IMG/VR virus record: IMGVR_UViG_2877973648_000001
Span: 1 to 20,998 of that record
Strand: one strand, 5' to 3'
DNA: 20,998 bases
DNA from: a virus
Taxonomy: Duplodnaviria > Heunggongvirae > Uroviricota > Caudoviricetes
The notes under the pieces are model-generated. The model had not been told where the DNA came from, ran no database searches, and saw nothing but the letters and a program-made list of their open reading frames with translations. Below, one piece after another: positions 6,243 to 18,160 of this stretch; the first letter of the stretch is position 1; each line of letters begins with the position of its first letter. Made by a program: the position numbers and the translations under genes.

Positions 6243-8512
6243 GTAGAGTAAGAGGCAGGGCGTAGTCGGACTATTTCCCTGCCTCTCCTCCCCGAACCGG
6301 ACGTGCACCTTTCAGCGCATCCGGCTCTCCATTTAAATGCTGGCGAACGCCATTGCCACTTCTGTAAAGCGCGATGTATACGTGTTTCTGGTCTCCGTCC
6401 TCAGATAGGGATTACCTTCGGGTAGCCGCCAGCGGAACAGCTTCTTGCCTTGCCCCACCAACCGGTACAGTATTTCGCCGCTGAGCTTGCCGTGATTGGT
6501 TTTACCAAATAAAACCCACGTTTTGCTCTGACCCGGTTTCGGTGATTTACACCACCACCTCATCAGGGAAGCGATACCTGTACGGTATTTGCGGGCCAGC
6601 CAGTGAGCCAGCTTCCAGAACACGACACGGTCGATATAACTGAAGACTTTGGCCTTAAAATCAACGAACTGATAGAACATGGCCCAGCCTTTCAGTTTTC
6701 GGTTGAGTTGTTCAGCCATATCGACTTTGCTTTCACTGTAGTTGCCTGATAACAGTGCTGTCAGCGATGCGGCGAAGTTTCTGGCTTTCTCCTGCGGGAT
6801 CGTTGAGACCACTCGCATCTCGCCATAACGACTGCGTTTGCGAATGATCCTGTGCCCCAGAAAGATAAAGCCGTCATTAACATGGGTGATTTTAGTCTTA
6901 TCCATGTTCAGCCTGAGTTTCAGACTGCCTTCGAGCACACCCCGACACTCCTCCCTGATGGCTTCCGCCTGTGCTTTGGTGCCTTTGACGATGAGGACAA
7001 AATCATCGGCATAGCGGCAGTACGCCACCGCGGGTTTCCACTGCCAGTTTTCTCTGACCGCCGTACTTCGGCCCCGTTGGATACTGTTATTCCAGTACCA
7101 CCGATCTTTTCTGGCTTTCCCGCTCAGGTAGCGCTCATGCAGGTATTGATCGAACTCATTCAGCATGATGTTCGATAATAGCGGCGATATAACACCGCCC
7201 TGTGGCACACCTTCACTGGCCGCCCGAAAGAGACCGACATCGATATGTCCCGCCTTGATGGTTTTCCACAGCAGAGTCATGAAACGTGCGTCACTGATCC
7301 TGCGGCGTACAGCCTTCATCAGCAGTCGATGATGTACGGTGTCGAAGTAACTGGACAGGTCGCCTTCAATCACCCAGCGTCCCCGGGTTTCACCACAGTC
7401 TGTGAGCTGTAATTTCACCGTGCGGATCGCGTGGTGGACACTGCGCTCAGGCCGGAAGCCATATGAGAGCGTATGAAAATCACTCTCCCATATCGGCTCC
7501 ATCGCCATCAGCATGGCCCGCTGAACAATACGATCCCGCAACGCGGGGATACCCAGTGGTCGCAGTTTGCCGTTGCTTTTAGGGATGTAAACCCGTCTGG
7601 CGGGCAAGGGCTGGTAGTGGCCTGAGAGTAATTCATCCCTGAGGATTTGCAGCTCAACAGCCAGTCTGGCCTGTAGCATTGTTTTGTTCACGCCATCAAC
7701 GCCGGGGGTATGGGCCCCCTTTGATGAAAGCGTGATCCGCGCCGCTTCAGCCAGCCATTCTGGTTGTGTTATCAGACGCAGCAGCCGTTGAATCCGTAGG
7801 GACGGATCGGTGACTGCCCATGTGGCAAGCTTGCGTTGCATTTCGCTGATTATCAAAGGTCTTCACCTCGTTAGGTCAGTTAATTCACGTCGCAAACACA
7901 TTCAAACTGCTTCCCTTCGCCATGTAATGGGCTTTCCCCATCGCGGACTACTACGGAAGCTCCGCCAGCCAGCGCGTCATCGGAGCCATGCCCCCTTAAC
8001 ATCCGTCGCTGACCTTCCCCGGTTTACCTGCCTGGACTCAGGCATACTGAGGAGGCTGCCCGTCGCACTCTTTATCCTTGCTTGCCGCAAGTTGGCAGAA
8101 GTCAGCAACGCAAGCGTGATAGACGCTGCTGCCCCGGTGTTTCGCATACATGTCAAAACACCTTCGACCGGCAGTGCTTACGTATCACTGCCAGTTCCTC
8201 CTGCACGGCCTGTCAGATCACGTAGGCCGTGGTGACGTTTTCAACCCACAGAGGCGGATTAACGGGTTCATGTTCTTCAGCCTTTCAGTACTTAACCTTG
8301 AGGATCATCTCGGCTTAGTGATCTCGCCTCAATCCCCGTTGTCAGCGGGTTACATCACCCTGCGGGCATGCCGCAGGTCACTGCCGCTCAGGTTCTCCAC
8401 CGTCACACCCGGTGGGATTGTTGGGTTTCTCATCGTGAGTTACCGGTTCAATATTCCAGACAGACTCGCGGTTCATTTAAGCATCCATGCCCGCCCTGAA
8501 CTCCGGGCACAC
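6243..8512 (-). mobile_element. bacterial group II intron inserted in the IS629-like orfB
   Basis: Minus-strand 5' end GTGTGCCCGGAG (GUGYG consensus) starting at 8512; domain V GAGCCGGATGCGCTGAAAGGTGCACGTCCGGTTC at 6294-6327; domain-VI-like stem and 3' end ...CTAC at 6243. Joining the flanking exons gives a continuous OrfB (...ADFTY-V-STWQGF...). Confidence 0.8.
6333..7856 (-). CDS. group II intron-encoded reverse transcriptase/maturase
   Basis: Track ORF 507 aa with RT motifs (...RPLGIPALRDRIVQ..., ...YCRYADDFVLI...) and a maturase X region; ORF ends just upstream of domain V, as is typical for an ORF within domain IV. Confidence 0.85.
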   Translation of the reverse strand: MIISEMQRKLATWAVTDPSLRIQRLLRLITQPEWLAEAARITLSSKGAHTPGVDGVNKTMLQARLAVELQILRDELLSGHYQPLPARRVYIPKSNGKLRPLGIPALRDRIVQRAMLMAMEPIWESDFHTLSYGFRPERSVHHAIRTVKLQLTDCGETRGRWVIEGDLSSYFDTVHHRLLMKAVRRRISDARFMTLLWKTIKAGHIDVGLFRAASEGVPQGGVISPLLSNIMLNEFDQYLHERYLSGKARKDRWYWNNSIQRGRSTAVRENWQWKPAVAYCRYADDFVLIVKGTKAQAEAIREECRGVLEGSLKLRLNMDKTKITHVNDGFIFLGHRIIRKRSRYGEMRVVSTIPQEKARNFAASLTALLSGNYSESKVDMAEQLNRKLKGWAMFYQFVDFKAKVFSYIDRVVFWKLAHWLARKYRTGIASLMRWWCKSPKPGQSKTWVLFGKTNHGKLSGEILYRLVGQGKKLFRWRLPEGNPYLRTETRNTYTSRFTEVAMAFASI

Positions 8513-8927
8513 CGTAGGTAAAATCGGCCACCCAAAGACTATCGGGCCGTTCAGCCACGAACTGCCGGTTCACCCGATCCTGCGGTGTTTCGGCTTTGTT
8601 GCTGCGGGTGGTTCTGACACTTTTGCCGCGTGTCACCCCACGTAGCTGCAGGGCTTTCATCAGGCGCTCAATGGTGCAGCGGGCAACGCCGACACCTTCA
8701 CGTTTTAGCTGTCGCCAGACCTTACGCACACCGTAAACGCTGTAGTTTTCTTCGTATACGCGCTGTATCTCAGGTATCAGCACGGCATCGCGTTTATCCC
8801 GACTACTGCGTCGTTCAGGACACTTCCGGCGTTGCTGATGCCAGTAGTACGTTGACGGAGCAATATCCAGCTCATGACAGACTGGCCCGACCCCGTGTTC
8901 ACCGCTCAGATTTTCCAGAAGCGGCAT
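8513..8927 (-). CDS. IS3-family transposase OrfB, N-terminal exon (interrupted by the group II intron)
   Basis: Translation MPLLENLSGEHGVGPVCHELDIAPSTYYWHQQRR...RPDSLWVADFTY; after Y (codon 8514-8516) the sequence enters the intron. The track ORF continues to 8448 reading intron sequence. Confidence 0.75.
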
Positions 8928-9268
8928 TATTTTTTCCAGTGGCGGTCGAGCTCCGCCTGGGCAAAATACGCTGAAGCCTGACGCAGAATATCATTGCTGC
9001 GGCGCAGCTCGCGGACTTCCCGCTCCAGTTCTTTCAGACGCTGGCGTTCGCTGGCAGTCAGCGCATTCTGCTCATCATCAACGGGCTCCTGCTGACGGAT
9101 CCAGATACGCAATGTCTCGGGAGTGCAGCCGATCTTAGGGGCAATGGAGCAGATAGCGGCCCATTGTGAGTTGTAGGTATTCTGGTTTTCCAGAACCATA
9201 CGAATAGCGCGTTGACGAACTTCAGGGGGAAATCGGTTATGTTTTGTCATCCTGGTTACCTCTCTCAA
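8927..9268 (-). CDS. IS3-family (IS629-like) transposase OrfA, helix-turn-helix protein
   Basis: Track ORF 113 aa: MTKHNRFPPEVRQRAIRMVLENQ...LKELEREVRELRRSNDILRQASAYFAQAELDRHWKK; stop overlaps the orfB start (ATGA). Confidence 0.85.
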   Translation of the reverse strand: MREVTRMTKHNRFPPEVRQRAIRMVLENQNTYNSQWAAICSIAPKIGCTPETLRIWIRQQEPVDDEQNALTASERQRLKELEREVRELRRSNDILRQASAYFAQAELDRHWKK

Positions 9269-9415
9269 AGAGTGTAGTCTCCAGGATTACCGGGGCGGTT
9301 CATTGGGATAAATGAACAAAGTTTTGGTTATATTTTTGATGCAAAAAGATATAATTGTAGTACTTCCACCTTTCGCATTTGGGTAGGTTTGTTTGGGCGA
9401 TTGGTGGAAGTGCTA

Positions 9416-9727
9416 TCAAAACGGTAATTCTCCCTGCCCAGAGAACCAACCATCTTCTTCATGCTGCTTATAGACGGCATTCTCAGTACTCAGATAATGC
9501 AAGCCTTCCAGTACTGAACTTAGCGGCGTTTCCAGTATGAACACGAAGCAATCACGCTCAATCGTGCCTAACCAGTATGTACCTTGCTGGTTCTGAAAGA
9601 AAACACGATCCCCATATGAAAACTCATCAAGACTGTATCCCCAATAGCAGACCTTAGCCCATTGGCCTAAATGCTCAAACTGCTGAACCCCGTGTTTGAT
9701 TGCCGGATCAAAACCATTCTTGCCCAT
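9416..9727 (-). CDS. hypothetical protein (103 aa)
   Basis: Start chosen at the internal ATG 9727, which is preceded on the minus strand by GGAGGG with a 6-nt spacer; the track ORF extends to 9805 without a ribosome-binding site. Confidence 0.5.
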   Translation of the reverse strand: MGKNGFDPAIKHGVQQFEHLGQWAKVCYWGYSLDEFSYGDRVFFQNQQGTYWLGTIERDCFVFILETPLSSVLEGLHYLSTENAVYKQHEEDGWFSGQGELPF

Positions 9728-9908: not shown

Positions 9909-10418
9909 ATGAAACTCGAACATTGGGCAGTTCCTATTACGTCTTTGGACGGTATGTTACTCGGCGTAGAGCTGGAAACCCGTGTACTGATAAACGGTTG
10001 CCGGGTACTGATGGGGGCAGGAAAGGAAAGTGAATACATTCGTCACGTGGTCTATCAGAACCAGTTAAGAATGATTCAGGGCAAAGCCGCATGGTTCAAA
10101 GAAAAGGGGGTGTTGTGCGTGCTCAGTACTGGCACAGGTACACGCTATGAAGATCTACCATTCATACGGTACATGGCTGCTGAACCGCTGCTAACGGACG
10201 GTTACGACTTAGTTCGACTAAATAGACGGTTCACTGAGGAATACATAGAGCGGTTGATCTTCCCGGTACTCATTAAGAACATCATGCAGTACTGCGACAA
10301 GGTGATCGTACAAGTCAGCAGCAACCGAAATCACAGGATTTTACGAGAGTCGGGCATATGGGCAGTACAGGGAGAGTACAGGCCAATCCGCTTTGAACAA
10401 TGCGAACAACTTCTATAG
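9909..10418 (+). CDS. hypothetical protein with EAL-domain-like N-terminal motif (short, probably degenerate)
   Basis: Track ORF 169 aa; WAVPITSLDGMLLGVELETRVL resembles the start of EAL domains (QPIvsL.g.l.GvEaL.R), but the protein is too short for a complete EAL phosphodiesterase. Confidence 0.45.
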   Translation: MKLEHWAVPITSLDGMLLGVELETRVLINGCRVLMGAGKESEYIRHVVYQNQLRMIQGKAAWFKEKGVLCVLSTGTGTRYEDLPFIRYMAAEPLLTDGYDLVRLNRRFTEEYIERLIFPVLIKNIMQYCDKVIVQVSSNRNHRILRESGIWAVQGEYRPIRFEQCEQLL

Positions 10419-10428
10419 GGATATAACA

Positions 10429-10701
10429 ATGAAAATACTAATCGTCATGTTGGTAGTACTGCTCACAGGCTGCGGCACCGTACATCATTCATTCATGGAT
10501 AAAGCCTTGGTCGGTAACGTTGATAACAAAGCTATAATAGTACTGTTTGATACAGGTACACGTAACGGGGTGAAGTACTACCGTCCTCAGTTCCAGAGTG
10601 ATTGTGGCCGCACCTACAATCCGATCTATCAGGTGGACAATGGCAGTACTACATGCCATATACGAGAGGAAAGAATTAAAAAAATGCATCAATATAGATA
10701 A
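10429..10701 (+). CDS. small lipoprotein (signal peptide with lipobox LTGC)
   Basis: ATG at 10429 preceded by AGGGA with 7-nt spacer; MKILIVMLVVLLTGCGTV... carries a type II signal peptide. Starts 10 nt after the stop of 9909-10418, so probably co-transcribed. Confidence 0.55.
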   Translation: MKILIVMLVVLLTGCGTVHHSFMDKALVGNVDNKAIIVLFDTGTRNGVKYYRPQFQSDCGRTYNPIYQVDNGSTTCHIREERIKKMHQYR

Positions 10702-10723
10702 TAAACAAAAATCAAAGAGATAG

Positions 10724-10787
10724 AATTATTAAATTATTAAATTATTAAATTATTAAATTATTAAATTATTAAATTATTAAATTATTA
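10724..10787. repeat. perfect tandem repeat (AATTATTA) x 8
   Basis: Eight uninterrupted 8-bp units counted directly, between the 3' ends of convergent genes. Confidence 0.9.
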
Positions 10788-10829
10788 AGTGTATGTGGCA
10801 TGATGAAAAATTAAATAATATATAATACC

Positions 10830-10859
10830 CTCATGCTGTTATTGATAAAACAGCATGAG
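10830..10859. terminator. candidate intrinsic terminator hairpin (11-bp perfect stem)
   Basis: CTCATGCTGTT (10830-10840) / AACAGCATGAG (10849-10859) with 8-nt loop and A/T-rich flanks; immediately downstream of the minus-strand gene ending at 10870. Confidence 0.5.
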
Positions 10860-10869
10860 AATATATATT

Positions 10870-12024
10870 TCAACGTAGCATGGCTAATGTTCTGGAAATT
10901 CTTATTATATCCTTCTCAATATCATCTAAAACAGGAGTTGAGTTTCTGCTTCGCTCTGCAATTTCTTGCAAAATATATCTATTTAAATGGTTGTTAACAT
11001 TTTTAGGGTCAAGGTTTTCTGGTGTGGGAACAACACAGCACTGCCAATAAAAAATCTCATCTTCAAAATGATTTAGCCATTTAGAATGATATTTTTCTTT
11101 CGATTTTTTCTTGTTAAGGACATAAATGCTAGCCGCAGCTACCACATCCGCAATTTGTATACCATGCGTGACTTTAGAATCAGAAAGAATCATTGGCTCA
11201 GATAGCTTAAATGTGATCGGGATTTTTTTATCATGAAAAGTCTCGAACACAATCTCATCATTGCCTATCATCTCATTGAATGAGTCCTGATGAGTAATTA
11301 ATGGTTTTGAGCTGTCGCATATAGCTCTCAATGTACCAAACTTACTACTCATATCGCACAGGAGATTATAAAGAGAAGTCGTTGTCAAATCTAATAACCA
11401 CTTATCAATCCCAGTACCCTCAAGGCCTTCATATTCTTCTTCAATTATAGAGATGTTATTCTTGGCGAAATCATGAATGTCCATCATAATTTCAGAATTT
11501 TTAGAACCAACAACTGGTTCGATAAAACTATTAACCAATATTTTACCTCGTGAAAAATCTTCAAATCGCGAATGTAATAGTTCTGAATATTCATCCTTAG
11601 CTATTAAAGAAAAATACATTATATTTGAGATGAATAGGTGAAATTTAAGGTTGTAAAAAATTGAGCTTTTAGCTGCTAATACTGGCTCAAAAATATATTC
11701 GAAGAATTTTCCTGAGAGGGCATATTTTTTTTCGTTTACAACCACACGCATACGACCACGGAAATGATTAAGTATTTCATCTACGGCTGGTTGAAATCTC
11801 TTGCTATTTACGAGAGTGCTACCTTTTAGCTCTTCGGCTGCGATCGAGTACTTGTTTATTATATAATCAACAAACTGTTTACTTTCCTCATCATCAGTCA
11901 CGACTGCTGCGTAACTAAAAAAAGGCTGATCTTTTGAAAGTAAGTTATTACCAGTGAATCCTGATTCATCGAAATATACATTCTTTACCAATTTGGTCAT
12001 TCCTTTATGAGCTACAATGTGCAT
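10870..12024 (-). CDS. DUF3800-like protein (conserved DESG motif near N-terminus, Q-x-AD motif near C-terminus)
   Basis: Track ORF 384 aa; ...VYFDESGFTGNN... and ...HGIQIADVVAAASIYV... match my recollection of DUF3800 signature motifs. True start uncertain (ATG 12024, ATG 12000 or TTG 11991). Confidence 0.55.
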   Translation of the reverse strand: MHIVAHKGMTKLVKNVYFDESGFTGNNLLSKDQPFFSYAAVVTDDEESKQFVDYIINKYSIAAEELKGSTLVNSKRFQPAVDEILNHFRGRMRVVVNEKKYALSGKFFEYIFEPVLAAKSSIFYNLKFHLFISNIMYFSLIAKDEYSELLHSRFEDFSRGKILVNSFIEPVVGSKNSEIMMDIHDFAKNNISIIEEEYEGLEGTGIDKWLLDLTTTSLYNLLCDMSSKFGTLRAICDSSKPLITHQDSFNEMIGNDEIVFETFHDKKIPITFKLSEPMILSDSKVTHGIQIADVVAAASIYVLNKKKSKEKYHSKWLNHFEDEIFYWQCCVVPTPENLDPKNVNNHLNRYILQEIAERSRNSTPVLDDIEKDIIRISRTLAMLR

Positions 12025-12203
12025 GTGCTATTAATATAACATTGTAATAATGCTAATGTAAAATAGAATGTAAGTATTTTTAAGCAAGCTAATTAAGTTA
12101 AATTACTAATTAAGGTACTCCGGCAGCCCAGCTTAGAACGCGAGTTTTCGGCACCGGATTCTTTAAGTTATGTGTGAAGTTTAGATAGCTTCCCGCACCG
12201 CAC

Positions 12204-12767
12204 TTAGCAAAGTACAACACCTATTTCATTTAACGCACAATCGCAATGACGGTTTGTCGGACATTCGCATAATTTGAATACTGCATAAGATCCTTTAAGG
12301 GTATCGGTTACATACTTGTCCATTTCTTCAACTACAGATGATGAGCAATATAAATGAAAACCAACACAGAAAGAATTTCGCATCGGATACTTACATTCTT
12401 GTATAGAGTTGAGTTTCAAATGGTCTGCTTGCAATCCTCTTTTTAAGGCAGATGAACGCTTAGTACATTTCAGCTCAATAAAGATATAGTCTTCAAAAAG
12501 GGTATCTTTTTCTCTCATTATTATATCGATTTTTGAGAGCTTGCTTGCAGGGAAATTATTAGGGGCAAGAAAAGCTGTAACTTCACGTTTAACTTCATAT
12601 TTTCTTTTTTTGTTAAGGAAGTGCTCAAATTCAATTTGTAGCCATTTTTCCCAATCATTAGTTTCATTACTGACGAAGGAATACAGACGCCTCTTTATAT
12701 CTTCATTCTTTAGGAAGCTATTCAGTAACTTTACCAGCAAAGAAAAATCATTGTTGCGGTCTGACAT
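12204..12767 (-). CDS. hypothetical PD-(D/E)xK-like nuclease-fold protein with C-terminal cysteine cluster
   Basis: Track ORF 187 aa; KIDIIMREKDTLFEDYIFIELKCTK fits D ... E-x-K spacing; C-terminal CVGFHLYC...CECPTNRHCDC is Cys-rich (possible metal site). Same strand as, and upstream of, the DUF3800-like gene. Confidence 0.5.
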   Translation of the reverse strand: MSDRNNDFSLLVKLLNSFLKNEDIKRRLYSFVSNETNDWEKWLQIEFEHFLNKKRKYEVKREVTAFLAPNNFPASKLSKIDIIMREKDTLFEDYIFIELKCTKRSSALKRGLQADHLKLNSIQECKYPMRNSFCVGFHLYCSSSVVEEMDKYVTDTLKGSYAVFKLCECPTNRHCDCALNEIGVVLC

Positions 12768-12781
12768 AGTGATCTCAATAA

Positions 12782-14027
<1,246 letters not shown>

Positions 14028-14900
14028 TCTTGACCCTCCATCTCCGAACAGCTTTTGTATCTTAAGTTAACGATGTCCGCTGCCGCCGGTATTCCCTCGG
14101 GGAGTGATATCCCAGCGCGCTGTGCGGGTGGTTTTCATTGTAATGCGTGAACGCTACTGCAAGGTTTCGCAGTGCTGTTCTCACATCCGGTTTTGGCATG
14201 AACGCGATATAGTCTTCTTTCATCGTTTTCACGAACCGTTCGGCCATGCCATTACTCTGCGGGCTGCTCACCGCTGTTGTGCAGGGCTCCAGATTCAGCT
14301 CTCTCGCGAACCTCCGCGTTTCATACGCGGTATACGCTGAACCGTTATCCGTCAGCCACTGCACCGCTGTGTCGGGCAACCTGTCGCCGAAGCGCTTTTC
14401 CACCGACCTCAGCATCACATCCTGCACGGTCGAACTGTCATAGCCTCCCGTGCTTGCTGCCCAGTCTATGGCCTCACGGTCGCAGCAGTCCAGCGCGAAC
14501 GTTACCCGCAGTTTTTCGCCGTTGTCGCAGCCGAACTCGAAGCCATCTGAACACCAGCGCATATCGCTTTCTGCCACCGCTATCTTGCCCTTATGTTCAA
14601 GCTTCGGTCGCTCTGGTTTGTGATGCAACAACAACAGGTTATGCTCGCTCATTATCCTGTAAAGCCGTTTGGCATTCACAGGTGGCTGTCCCTCTGTGCG
14701 ACGTTGCTTGCGCAGGATGCCCCACACGCGTCGATAACCATAACTCGGCATATCGCTGATAATGTTGAGGATAGCCGACAGTATTTCTGCGTCTGCTTCT
14801 TCATTACGCCGGTTACAGCGCCTGTCCTGCCAGTCGGCAGAACGGTTAATCCGCAGTGACAGTTGCGCACGCGACACGCCCATGGTCCGGCTGACCATGG

Positions 14901-16871
<1,971 letters not shown>

Positions 16872-17039: not shown

Positions 17040-17303
17040 ATGAAGAAGCGTTTTTCCGACGAACAGATCATCAGTATTCTCCGCGAAGCCGAAGCTGGGG
17101 TACCCGCCCGTGAACTCTGCCGCAAGCATGCCATTTCCGATGCCACGTTTTACACCTGGCGTAAGAAGTATGGCGGTATGGAGGTGCCTGAAGTTAAGCG
17201 CCTGAAGTCGCTTGAGGAAGAGAACGCCAGACTCAAGAAGCTGCTTGCCGAAGCCATGCTGGATAAAGAGGCGCTTCAGGTGGCTCTTGGGCGAAAGTAC
17301 TGA
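17040..17303 (+). CDS. IS407-group transposase OrfA
   Basis: [49 protein letters not shown]...[15 protein letters not shown]... closely resembles IS407 OrfA as I recall it. Confidence 0.8.
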
Positions 17304-17326
17304 CGACAGACCAGAAGCGGGAAGCC

Positions 17327-18160
17327 GTGATGTTGATGTGTGATGCGACCGGTCTGTCGCAACGTCGTGCCTGCAGGCTTACAGGTTTATCCCTGTCGAC
17401 CTGCCGCTATGAGGCTCACCGTCCGGCTGCTGATGCGCATTTATCAGGGCGCATCACTGAGCTGGCACTGGAGCGCAGGCGTTTTGGCTACCGTCGTATT
17501 TGGCAGTTGCTGCGCCGTGAAGGGCTTCATGTTAATCATAAGCGCGTGTACCGGCTTTATCACCTCAGTGGCCTGGGCGTAAAACGCAGAAGACGTCGTA
17601 AAGGGCTGGCAACAGAACGTCTGCCGCTGCTCCGTCCGGCGGCGCCCAATCTGACCTGGTCGATGGATTTCGTCATGGACGCACTTTCCACCGGTCGCAG
17701 GATCAAGTGTCTTACCTGCGTCGATGATTTCACAAAGGAATGCCTGACGGTCACTGTTGCCTTTGGGATTTCAGGCGTTCAGGTCACGCGTATTCTGGAC
17801 AGCATTGCACTGTTTCGAGGCTATCCGGCGACGATAAGAACTGACCAGGGGCCGGAGTTCACTTGCCGTGCACTGGATCAATGGGCCTTTGAGCATGGTG
17901 TTGAGTTGCGCTTAATCCAGCCGGGCAAGCCAACGCAGAACGGATTTATTGAGAGCTTTAACGGACGATTTCGCGATGAATGTTTGAATGAGCACTGGTT
18001 CAGCGATATCGTTCATGCCAGGAAAATTATTAATGACTGGCGGCAGGATTATAACGAATGCCGCCCGCACTCCACGCTGAATTATCAGACACCGTCTGAA
18101 TTTGCAGCGGGCTGGAGAAAGGGTCATTCTGAGAATGAAGATTCCGACGTTACTAACTGA
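17327..18160 (+). CDS. IS407-group transposase OrfB (DDE integrase)
   Basis: Track ORF 277 aa with ...[10 protein letters not shown]...[56 protein letters not shown]... (rve-type catalytic core). Confidence 0.8.

Follow-up and report, generated by a model that had tools for sequence, protein, structure and literature searches.

A long solitary DUF3800 gene and a PD-(D/E)xK-like gene in a terS-proximal cargo zone of a decayed Escherichia coli prophage

Introduction

What are two nuclease-like genes doing beside the packaging genes of a prophage, and do they act together? The question is raised by a stretch of 20,998 nucleotides (nt) of tailed-phage DNA (Caudoviricetes; IMG/VR record IMGVR_UViG_2877973648_000001, positions 1 to 20,998), referred to here as the window, which carries on its minus strand two co-oriented open reading frames (ORFs) next to terS, the gene for the small terminase subunit. 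ORF A (10870-12024 in its longest form) resembles the DUF3800 family and ORF B (12204-12767) a PD-(D/E)xK nuclease, and a sequence-only reading, which had found both ORFs where they are, joined them into a single cargo or defence cassette. The analysis presented here bears out the cargo status of the genes but not their pairing: with a probability of roughly 60%, they are accessory nuclease genes, independent of each other, in a cargo and defence hotspot that lies close to terS in a decayed prophage.

In the papers found, DUF3800 is called unknown or putative, and none of them gives a biochemical function for it. The domain has been described as RNase H-like, with N-terminal DE and C-terminal QxxD motifs, and as an accessory protein of type VII retrons (PMC7736814); it accompanies Cas12a2/a3 and Cas13 loci (PMC10910872, PMC13594972, bioRxiv 10.64898/2026.08.25.746378), and eleven RNA motifs, DUF3800-I to -XI, lie near genes of the family (Weinberg et al., PMC5737381). 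Were a solitary member to prove a single-gene anti-phage nuclease, it would offer a first functional handle on a domain that also occurs in type VII retrons and in Cas12a2/a3 and Cas13 accessory genes, and beside eleven orphan RNA motifs.

Results and discussion

The two genes are independent of each other

Whether the two genes belong together can be judged from 40 loci that were anchored on TerL, the large terminase subunit, and hold enough upstream sequence, a sample independent of either gene. ORF B alone occurs in 15 of these, the DUF3800 gene alone in 2, both in 3 and neither in 20, and the three loci with both genes all belong to the lineage of the window. Among the 101 loci found through the DUF3800 gene and the 71 found through ORF B, co-occurrence is confined to two lineages, that of the window and a diverged remnant in Enterobacter roggenkampii (L085; loci compared here are cited by such L numbers). 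Each gene is common without the other. In Escherichia coli G3/10 and in IMG/VR loci L155-L158 the DUF3800 cassette lies with its flanks directly by terS, without ORF B, and in Serratia marcescens the DUF3800 gene stands alone beside icd, while homologues of ORF B are found divergent next to terS or terL in 51 of 63 IMG/VR loci, where the genes downstream of them differ from locus to locus or no gene in the same orientation follows. Clustering of the neighbours at 83 loci revealed no recurrent protein partner of the DUF3800 subfamily beyond the phage backbone of close relatives.

A two-gene system expressed as one operon, be it sensor and effector or toxin and antitoxin, would account for several features of the locus: the genes are neighbours in the same orientation, separated by about 212 nt when measured from the likely TTG start of ORF A, with no strong hairpin between them; the same arrangement is seen in E. 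roggenkampii at 87% and 63% amino acid identity; and both genes are intact in a decaying prophage. However, in addition to the rarity of the pair, the two genes are separated by a backbone element that all relatives possess (12113-12201, see below), loci without ORF B still have the promoter-like site of the DUF3800 gene, and the two proteins have diverged to a four-fold different extent over the same pair of loci, the non-synonymous divergence (dN) between the window and L085 being 0.066 for the DUF3800 gene and 0.261 for ORF B. We regard a two-gene system as very improbable, and conclude that ORF B and the DUF3800 gene are independent genes; the gene neighbourhoods thus speak against the cassette that had been proposed from the window's letters.

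ORF A is a long form of the DUF3800 family

ORF A is a true member of the DUF3800 family. A profile search places it well above the threshold of the Pfam model (PF12686; E 3.3e-9, 38 bits relative to a gathering cut-off of 21), with amino acids (aa) 15-298 aligned to profile positions 1-145 of 149, and it matches phrog_12991 end to end (E 8.5e-119). The signatures from which family membership had first been suspected, YFDESG at aa 17-22 and Q290-I-A-D293, are both real, and D19, E20, Q290, D293, D212, D237, E109 and E113 are invariant in an alignment of 30 homologues that reaches down to 37% identity. The longest ORF extends to an ATG at 12024 and would encode 384 aa; the likely start is a TTG at 11991, favoured because a near-identical RefSeq record annotates it and because the homologues fit, which makes the gene 10870-11991 (minus strand) and its product a protein of 373 aa that begins MVKNVYFDESG. 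The sequence-only reading had held ORF A to be about 130 aa longer than typical family members. That is so relative to the 149-position Pfam model only: more than 100 homologues span 373-421 aa, and the additional length is therefore what is usual in this subfamily, all listed homologues of which carry PF12686. The gene is under strong purifying selection, with a ratio of non-synonymous to synonymous divergence (dN/dS) of about 0.06.

Structure prediction suggests a type-2 RNase H-like fold for ORF A, with RNase HII, RNase HIII and RNase H2A as the best structural matches; the model further contains a helical insertion of about 100 aa (roughly aa 128-229) and a C-terminal helical extension of about 85 aa, neither of which is present in housekeeping RNases H. 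No sequence relative with a solved structure was found for the DUF3800 family or for the family of ORF B. Such a fold, together with the invariant acidic residues, is what would be expected of an ordinary phage RNase H that removes primers or R-loops during replication or repair. Yet the DUF3800 gene is absent from 35 of the 40 related phages, occupies an exchangeable slot, in reverse orientation and apart from any replication module, is also found alone in chromosomal islands and in front of attC-like sites, and encodes an insertion and an extension foreign to housekeeping enzymes, and we consider a replicative role highly unlikely.

With the DUF3800 proteins described to date ORF A shares a score above the Pfam threshold, the DE and QxxD motifs, an RNase H2/H3-like predicted fold, and a place on a mobile element in a defence context. 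It differs from them as a solitary long form with its insertion of about 100 aa and extension of about 85 aa. Unlike the type VII retrons, it has no retron non-coding RNA partner and no PADLOC match, retron models included, and the only reverse transcriptase in the window is a group II intron maturase (6333-7856), with no reverse transcriptase recurring in the 83 loci; unlike the TPR-DUF3800 (Csx32) proteins, it has no TPR domain, and there are no cas genes in the annotated 32-kilobase (kb) locus. The RNA motifs are a frequent association of DUF3800 genes and not a requirement for membership, and Rfam found none of them in the window, whether at the gathering threshold or at E <= 10, nor any in 13 homologous loci. 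The possibility of a structured RNA tied to DUF3800 between the two genes was considered and rejected, given no Rfam match and no folding signal, the 186-nt intergenic spacer folding like its shuffles (z 0.25).

The DUF3800 gene is carried by an exchangeable cassette

ORF A is part of a cargo cassette of about 1.45 kb (10668-12112, minus strand) that consists of a repeat, a hairpin, the gene and a promoter-like site. Its limits are drawn from phages that have ORF B only (L003, L092, L094, L100), whose backbone similarity to the window breaks off at about 12137-12144 and, in L092, returns at 10168-10667 beyond a different gene of 205 aa; the conserved element ends at 12113.

The cassette appears to bring its own expression signals. 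A predicted sigma-70-like promoter (12033-12062, minus strand) matches the consensus at 10 of 12 positions, with TTTACA, an 18-nt spacer and a TG-extended TATATT, and the -10 region (TGTTATATT/TATAAT) is kept in loci without ORF B (L002, L156, L158); we infer that this site drives the DUF3800 gene. At the other end, the hairpin that had been noted at 10830-10859 is real and strong, although those positions are only the perfect 11-bp core of a 16-pair stem found by terminator scan at 10825-10864 (minus strand; minimum free energy -23.7 kcal/mol, z -5.4, none of 200 shuffles equally stable). This hairpin probably terminates the DUF3800 transcript and could be a bidirectional terminator. Just beyond it, still within the cassette, lies a perfect tandem repeat of 8.1 copies of (AATTATTA) at 10724-10788, and the region 3' of the DUF3800 gene is similar among the other phage-borne copies of the cassette.

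Farther afield, the same subfamily seems to travel by other means. Directly 3' of DUF3800 homologues in seven unrelated genomes, at about 40% identity, lies a sequence (ATAACAA ... GCGGCGTTRRRY, in the first ~95 nt past the stop codon; L013, L014, L016, L017, L020, L030, L059) that resembles an integron attC site, an assignment made by sequence pattern only, and which suggests that these homologues are integron gene cassettes. The hosts are Ectothiorhodospira, Vibrio ruber, Marinomonas, Marinobacterium, Thalassomonas, Methylobacter and a metagenome-assembled genome of the Desulfuromonadaceae. Integron gene cassettes that carry phage-defence genes have been reported (bioRxiv 10.1101/2024.07.02.601719), and homologues in front of attC-like sites in Vibrio, Marinomonas, Thalassomonas and others would fit such promoter-less single-gene cargo. 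The copy in the window differs from these: it is a phage moron, lacks an attC and has both a promoter-like site and a terminator of its own. Other neighbours of DUF3800 genes elsewhere include integrases, S subunits of type I restriction-modification systems, PDC-S46 and mad5.

ORF B belongs to a family of PD-(D/E)xK-like proteins and lies next to terS

ORF B (12204-12767, minus strand) encodes 187 aa and is optional: where it occurs, it is inserted between the backbone element and terS. The D...E-L-K core that had led to its being called nuclease-like is present as D81 and E98-L-K100, and both the predicted fold, a PD-(D/E)xK fold with an alpha-beta-beta-beta-alpha-beta core, and the placing of its catalytic-type residues (E46 on helix 1, D81 on strand 2 and E98-x-K100 on strand 3) agree with this assignment. 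E40, W42, Q44, E46, E62, D81, E98, K100 and D115 are invariant across 44 family members whose mean column identity is 17%. The closest solved folds are nuclease domains of CinB and type II enzymes such as OkrAI, BamHI and BglII. By sequence, ORF B has no match in Pfam, NCBIfam or PADLOC and only a chance-level match in PHROG; its family has no match in the PDB and a single sub-threshold match to TnsA-like proteins, in 1 of 44 members (E 0.007), and so the protein is placed at the level of the PD-(D/E)xK superfamily only. A word-indexed search recovers 7 clusters of homologues and an exhaustive profile search 192 cluster representatives, mostly of 175-200 aa; ORF B thus defines a PD-(D/E)xK family that is missing from every curated library and comprises at least 192 sequence clusters.

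The C-terminal cysteine cluster of the sequence-only reading exists but is a mark of the subfamily rather than of the family. C101, C125, H138, C141, C167, C169, C175 and C177, which include the CxC-x5-CxC cluster at the C-terminus, are invariant in the seven closest homologues of ORF B, whereas the cluster is missing from most of the 44 members of the wider family. The cluster is lineage-specific and probably forms a small metal-binding loop; residues 171-174, within the cysteine region, are modelled with low confidence. Iron-sulfur nucleases of the Cas4/AddB type have four conserved cysteines, one N-terminal and the others as C-x2-C-x5-C at the C-terminus. ORF B does not have this four-cysteine pattern, and a Cas4-like iron-sulfur cluster was rejected on that ground and for the lack of family-wide conservation. 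ORF B also differs from type II restriction-modification enzymes in having no neighbouring cognate methyltransferase: there is no DNA methyltransferase in the window around ORF B, and the nearest one annotated in L001, a near-identical RefSeq record, is more than 8 kb away.

Among relatives of the window's phage, ORF B occurs in about 45% and, when present, is always the gene nearest to terS. This constancy, and its place between terS and an element that may be a cos site, would suit an accessory nuclease for cos cleavage during packaging, like the terminase-adjacent HNH proteins of HK97-like phages. A packaging role is nonetheless very hard to reconcile with the lack of ORF B in 22 of 40 close relatives whose terminase and element are the same, with the GpA nuclease domain that the TerL of this phage family possesses itself, and with transcription of ORF B away from the packaging operon, and we rate it as very improbable.

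Rather more can be said for ORF B as a selfish, free-standing homing-type endonuclease that would spread by cutting empty element-terS junctions and being copied in during repair. It forms a presence/absence polymorphism of about 0.6 kb at one fixed site between two highly conserved features, is distributed patchily among phages whose TerL shares 86-97% identity with the query TerL, diverges fast while retaining invariant catalytic residues, and is small, single-domain and oriented against its neighbours. The same pattern, however, would be expected of any optional moron, there is no target-site evidence, and the insertion site is non-coding and outside any conserved gene. Moreover, homing enzymes with a PD-(D/E)xK fold are rare in comparison with the LAGLIDADG, GIY-YIG and HNH types. 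Homing therefore strikes us as an unlikely explanation, albeit one that deserves more credit than a role in packaging.

A conserved non-coding element borders the slot

Between the two genes lies a feature that the sequence-only reading had not mentioned, a conserved non-coding backbone element of about 89 nt (12113-12201, minus strand) of the form GCGGTGCGGG ... CACAYACA ... GCCGAAAAC.CGC ... GGAG(T/A)ACC. With a profile built from 30 copies, the element was found in all 44 of the TerL-anchored loci that have about 100 nt or more upstream of terS. Where ORF B is absent the element abuts terS on its upstream side, and where ORF B is present it lies 2-3 nt past the ORF B stop codon, so that ORF B is a discrete optional insertion of about 0.6 kb. 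The element marks the inner border of the cargo slot. It may be a cos or packaging site, and an operon leader is another candidate. Its last block can also be given as GGAGTACC, and copies lie at 5807-5896 of L085, 4841-4928 of L158 and in more than 40 other loci.

The element has no consensus RNA structure. RNAalifold predicts 0 pairs in the consensus of 30 copies; on 5 close copies it gives -3.4 kcal/mol with a positive covariation term, and a helix specified by hand is paired in 57.9% of cases as against 56.8% in column shuffles. Inverted repeats found sequence by sequence contain 37 G-T mismatches and 3 A-C mismatches on the ORF B-sense strand.

Upstream of the DUF3800 gene in three loci without ORF B (L002 at 8001-9422, L155 and L156), the first ~15 nt of the element (GCGGTGCGGG) are exchanged for a perfect GC-rich hairpin (GTCCTCCTGA ... 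TCAGGAGGAC), and the 5' part of terS differs in these lineages too. These changes point to a recombination junction at about position 12186 of the window.

The slot carries defence genes in sister phages

What the slot holds in other members of the phage family is the chief reason to connect either gene with defence. A scan of 31 non-redundant genes located after ORF B and co-oriented with it in sister phages identified an OLD-family nuclease directly after ORF B in L135 (E 8.5e-72), PDC-M45A/C in L130, L134, L136 and L138, PDC-S29 in L111, and TIR-like genes in L148, as well as one JukA match and AbiJ_NTD5, SLOG, DUF4326 and DUF488 domains; in L004, a Drt2 reverse transcriptase (E 2.9e-205) lies deeper in the cargo region, about 2.9 kb downstream of ORF B. 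The flanks of the slot are constant: terS with the ~89-nt element at one end, backbone genes at the other. Because conserved flanks enclose a variable content that includes known defence genes, the slot has the signature of a phage-borne defence hotspot, and the cargo status of the two genes, which the sequence-only reading had suspected, is upheld. The window's slot has a positional parallel in the bor moron region of lambda, between the lysis genes and cos.

Two genes on the backbone side of the slot recur in sister phages L092 and L157. One (10393-10701, plus strand) encodes a predicted lipoprotein of 102 aa with weak similarity to Cor (E 0.015) and to PD-T4-4_B (E 0.003), and the other (9909-10418, plus strand) a protein of 169 aa whose C-terminus is weakly like the final part of an EAL-type c-di-GMP phosphodiesterase (E 1.2e-5, well short of the cut-off).

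Phage-borne defence hotspots are established for P2 and P4 (PMC9122126). The slot described here is like these in being reverse-oriented, variable in content, placed between conserved flanks at the packaging end, and in including OLD and a defence reverse transcriptase; it differs in belonging to another phage family, without a cultured member, and in its anchors, terS and the ~89-nt element. The novelty is modest, since both genes fall within known superfamilies and phage-borne hotspots are already known. A terS-proximal slot with so sharply conserved a non-coding border can, in addition, be mined for further cargo genes.

How the two genes might act

The outcomes that would have refuted the sequence-only reading did not occur: ORF A is related to DUF3800 and ORF B to nucleases, neither matches a characterised system, and neither belongs to a replication module. 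The reading we favour is that of two independent accessory nuclease genes in a cargo and defence hotspot of a decayed prophage. Several points weigh against this. Neither ORF A nor ORF B is matched by the models of PADLOC v2, and it is from location alone that we infer a defence role for either; many occupants of the slot in sister phages carry no defence annotation, and the neighbours of the DUF3800 subfamily elsewhere are a mixture of mobile, defence and housekeeping genes. As to independence, the loci were partly dereplicated, so that the counts given above are higher than the number of independent events. The pair is also maintained in a second, diverged lineage (L085), and between ORF B and the DUF3800 gene there is no strong terminator, for which reason the two may be co-transcribed at the locus of the window.

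The DUF3800 gene would probably encode a stand-alone anti-phage nuclease by which the prophage excludes superinfecting elements. In the mechanism we propose, a site formed by D19, E20, D237 and D293 would cut a nucleic-acid intermediate of the incoming element, plausibly one that resembles an RNA-DNA hybrid, by analogy to RNases H2 and H3, while target sensing or auto-inhibition would fall to the helical insertion and the C-terminal helices. ORF B would probably be a second, separate metal-dependent DNA endonuclease, serving either as another exclusion gene or as a homing-type selfish insertion at the junction of the element and terS, and each protein would function without the other. It is tempting to go further and to see in the DUF3800 protein, long and solitary as it is, an anti-phage nuclease that needs no other gene, in the slot a new defence hotspot of an uncultured enterobacterial phage family, and in ORF B a second new single-gene nuclease, for defence or for homing; we offer this fuller version tentatively, as the odds are somewhat against it.

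The copy of the DUF3800 gene in the window is a convenient construct for phage challenge and biochemical tests, being native to E. coli, solitary, contained in about 1.45 kb with its own expression signals, and taken from a slot that holds proven defence genes in sister phages. Should neither gene give a phenotype, the locus would amount to two morons in a decayed prophage.

The prophage and its phage family

The window corresponds to a defective prophage. Part of the chromosome of E. coli AREA_C483 matches it at 99.7% identity, and the region is matched by only 2 of 5,426 complete E. coli genomes. In AREA_C483 it forms an island of about 25 kb that is flanked by yeaG and mipA and begins with a serine recombinase; terS is present, terL is disrupted by elements of the IS3, IS5 and ISSen4 types, and the island further includes a gene for lysozyme and another IS3 copy that harbours a group II intron. 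Genes for portal, capsid and tail proteins are missing from the annotation of the island, and this, with terL broken by insertion sequences (IS), identifies it as a decayed prophage, in which both ORF A and ORF B have remained intact.

The related elements (L003, L092-L213; IMG/VR and Logan contigs) are about 31-38 kb long and encode a gpA-type TerL, a lambda-type portal and a fused S78 protease-capsid gene, with a serine recombinase in L001, the relative of the window. Cultured relatives were not found: the best TerL match among GenBank phages is only 35.7% identical, ORF B has zero tblastn matches among them, and the DUF3800 protein has a single match, at 40%, in an unannotated part of a Pseudomonas phage record. 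The host element represents a family of uncultured temperate enterobacterial phages.

The gene that anchors the locus, terS (12815-13363, plus strand; phrog_57, E 5.7e-23, and RefSeq annotation), starts 47 nt from the start of ORF B and is divergent from it; the location of the two genes by terS, given in the sequence-only reading, is correct. Most of this divergent spacer (12768-12814) is filled by 3.2 copies of a (ATAAAAAGG) repeat (12788-12816), which overlaps the ribosome-binding site and start codon of terS and could be a binding array for TerS or a regulator. Downstream of terS lies a 5' fragment of terL with the gpA-type ATPase domain (13371-14027, plus strand; PF05876 GpA_ATPase, E 3e-41, and RefSeq annotation of L001); terL is cut by an IS3-family element at 14062-15296, and the prophage is therefore defective.

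In all, three nested or adjacent insertion sequences interrupt terL between 14062 and 18160: the IS3-family element, an IS5 element at about 15709-16725, and an element of the ISSen4/IS1222 type with a frameshift element at 17270-17387, and a fragment of the terL nuclease domain is located between them. On the minus strand, a group II intron at 6243-7856 sits within an IS3-family element; an Rfam match to Intron_gpII (6243-6329) is followed by the ltrA-type maturase ORF (6333-7856), and an IS3 frameshift pseudoknot (ALIL) lies at 8856-8972.

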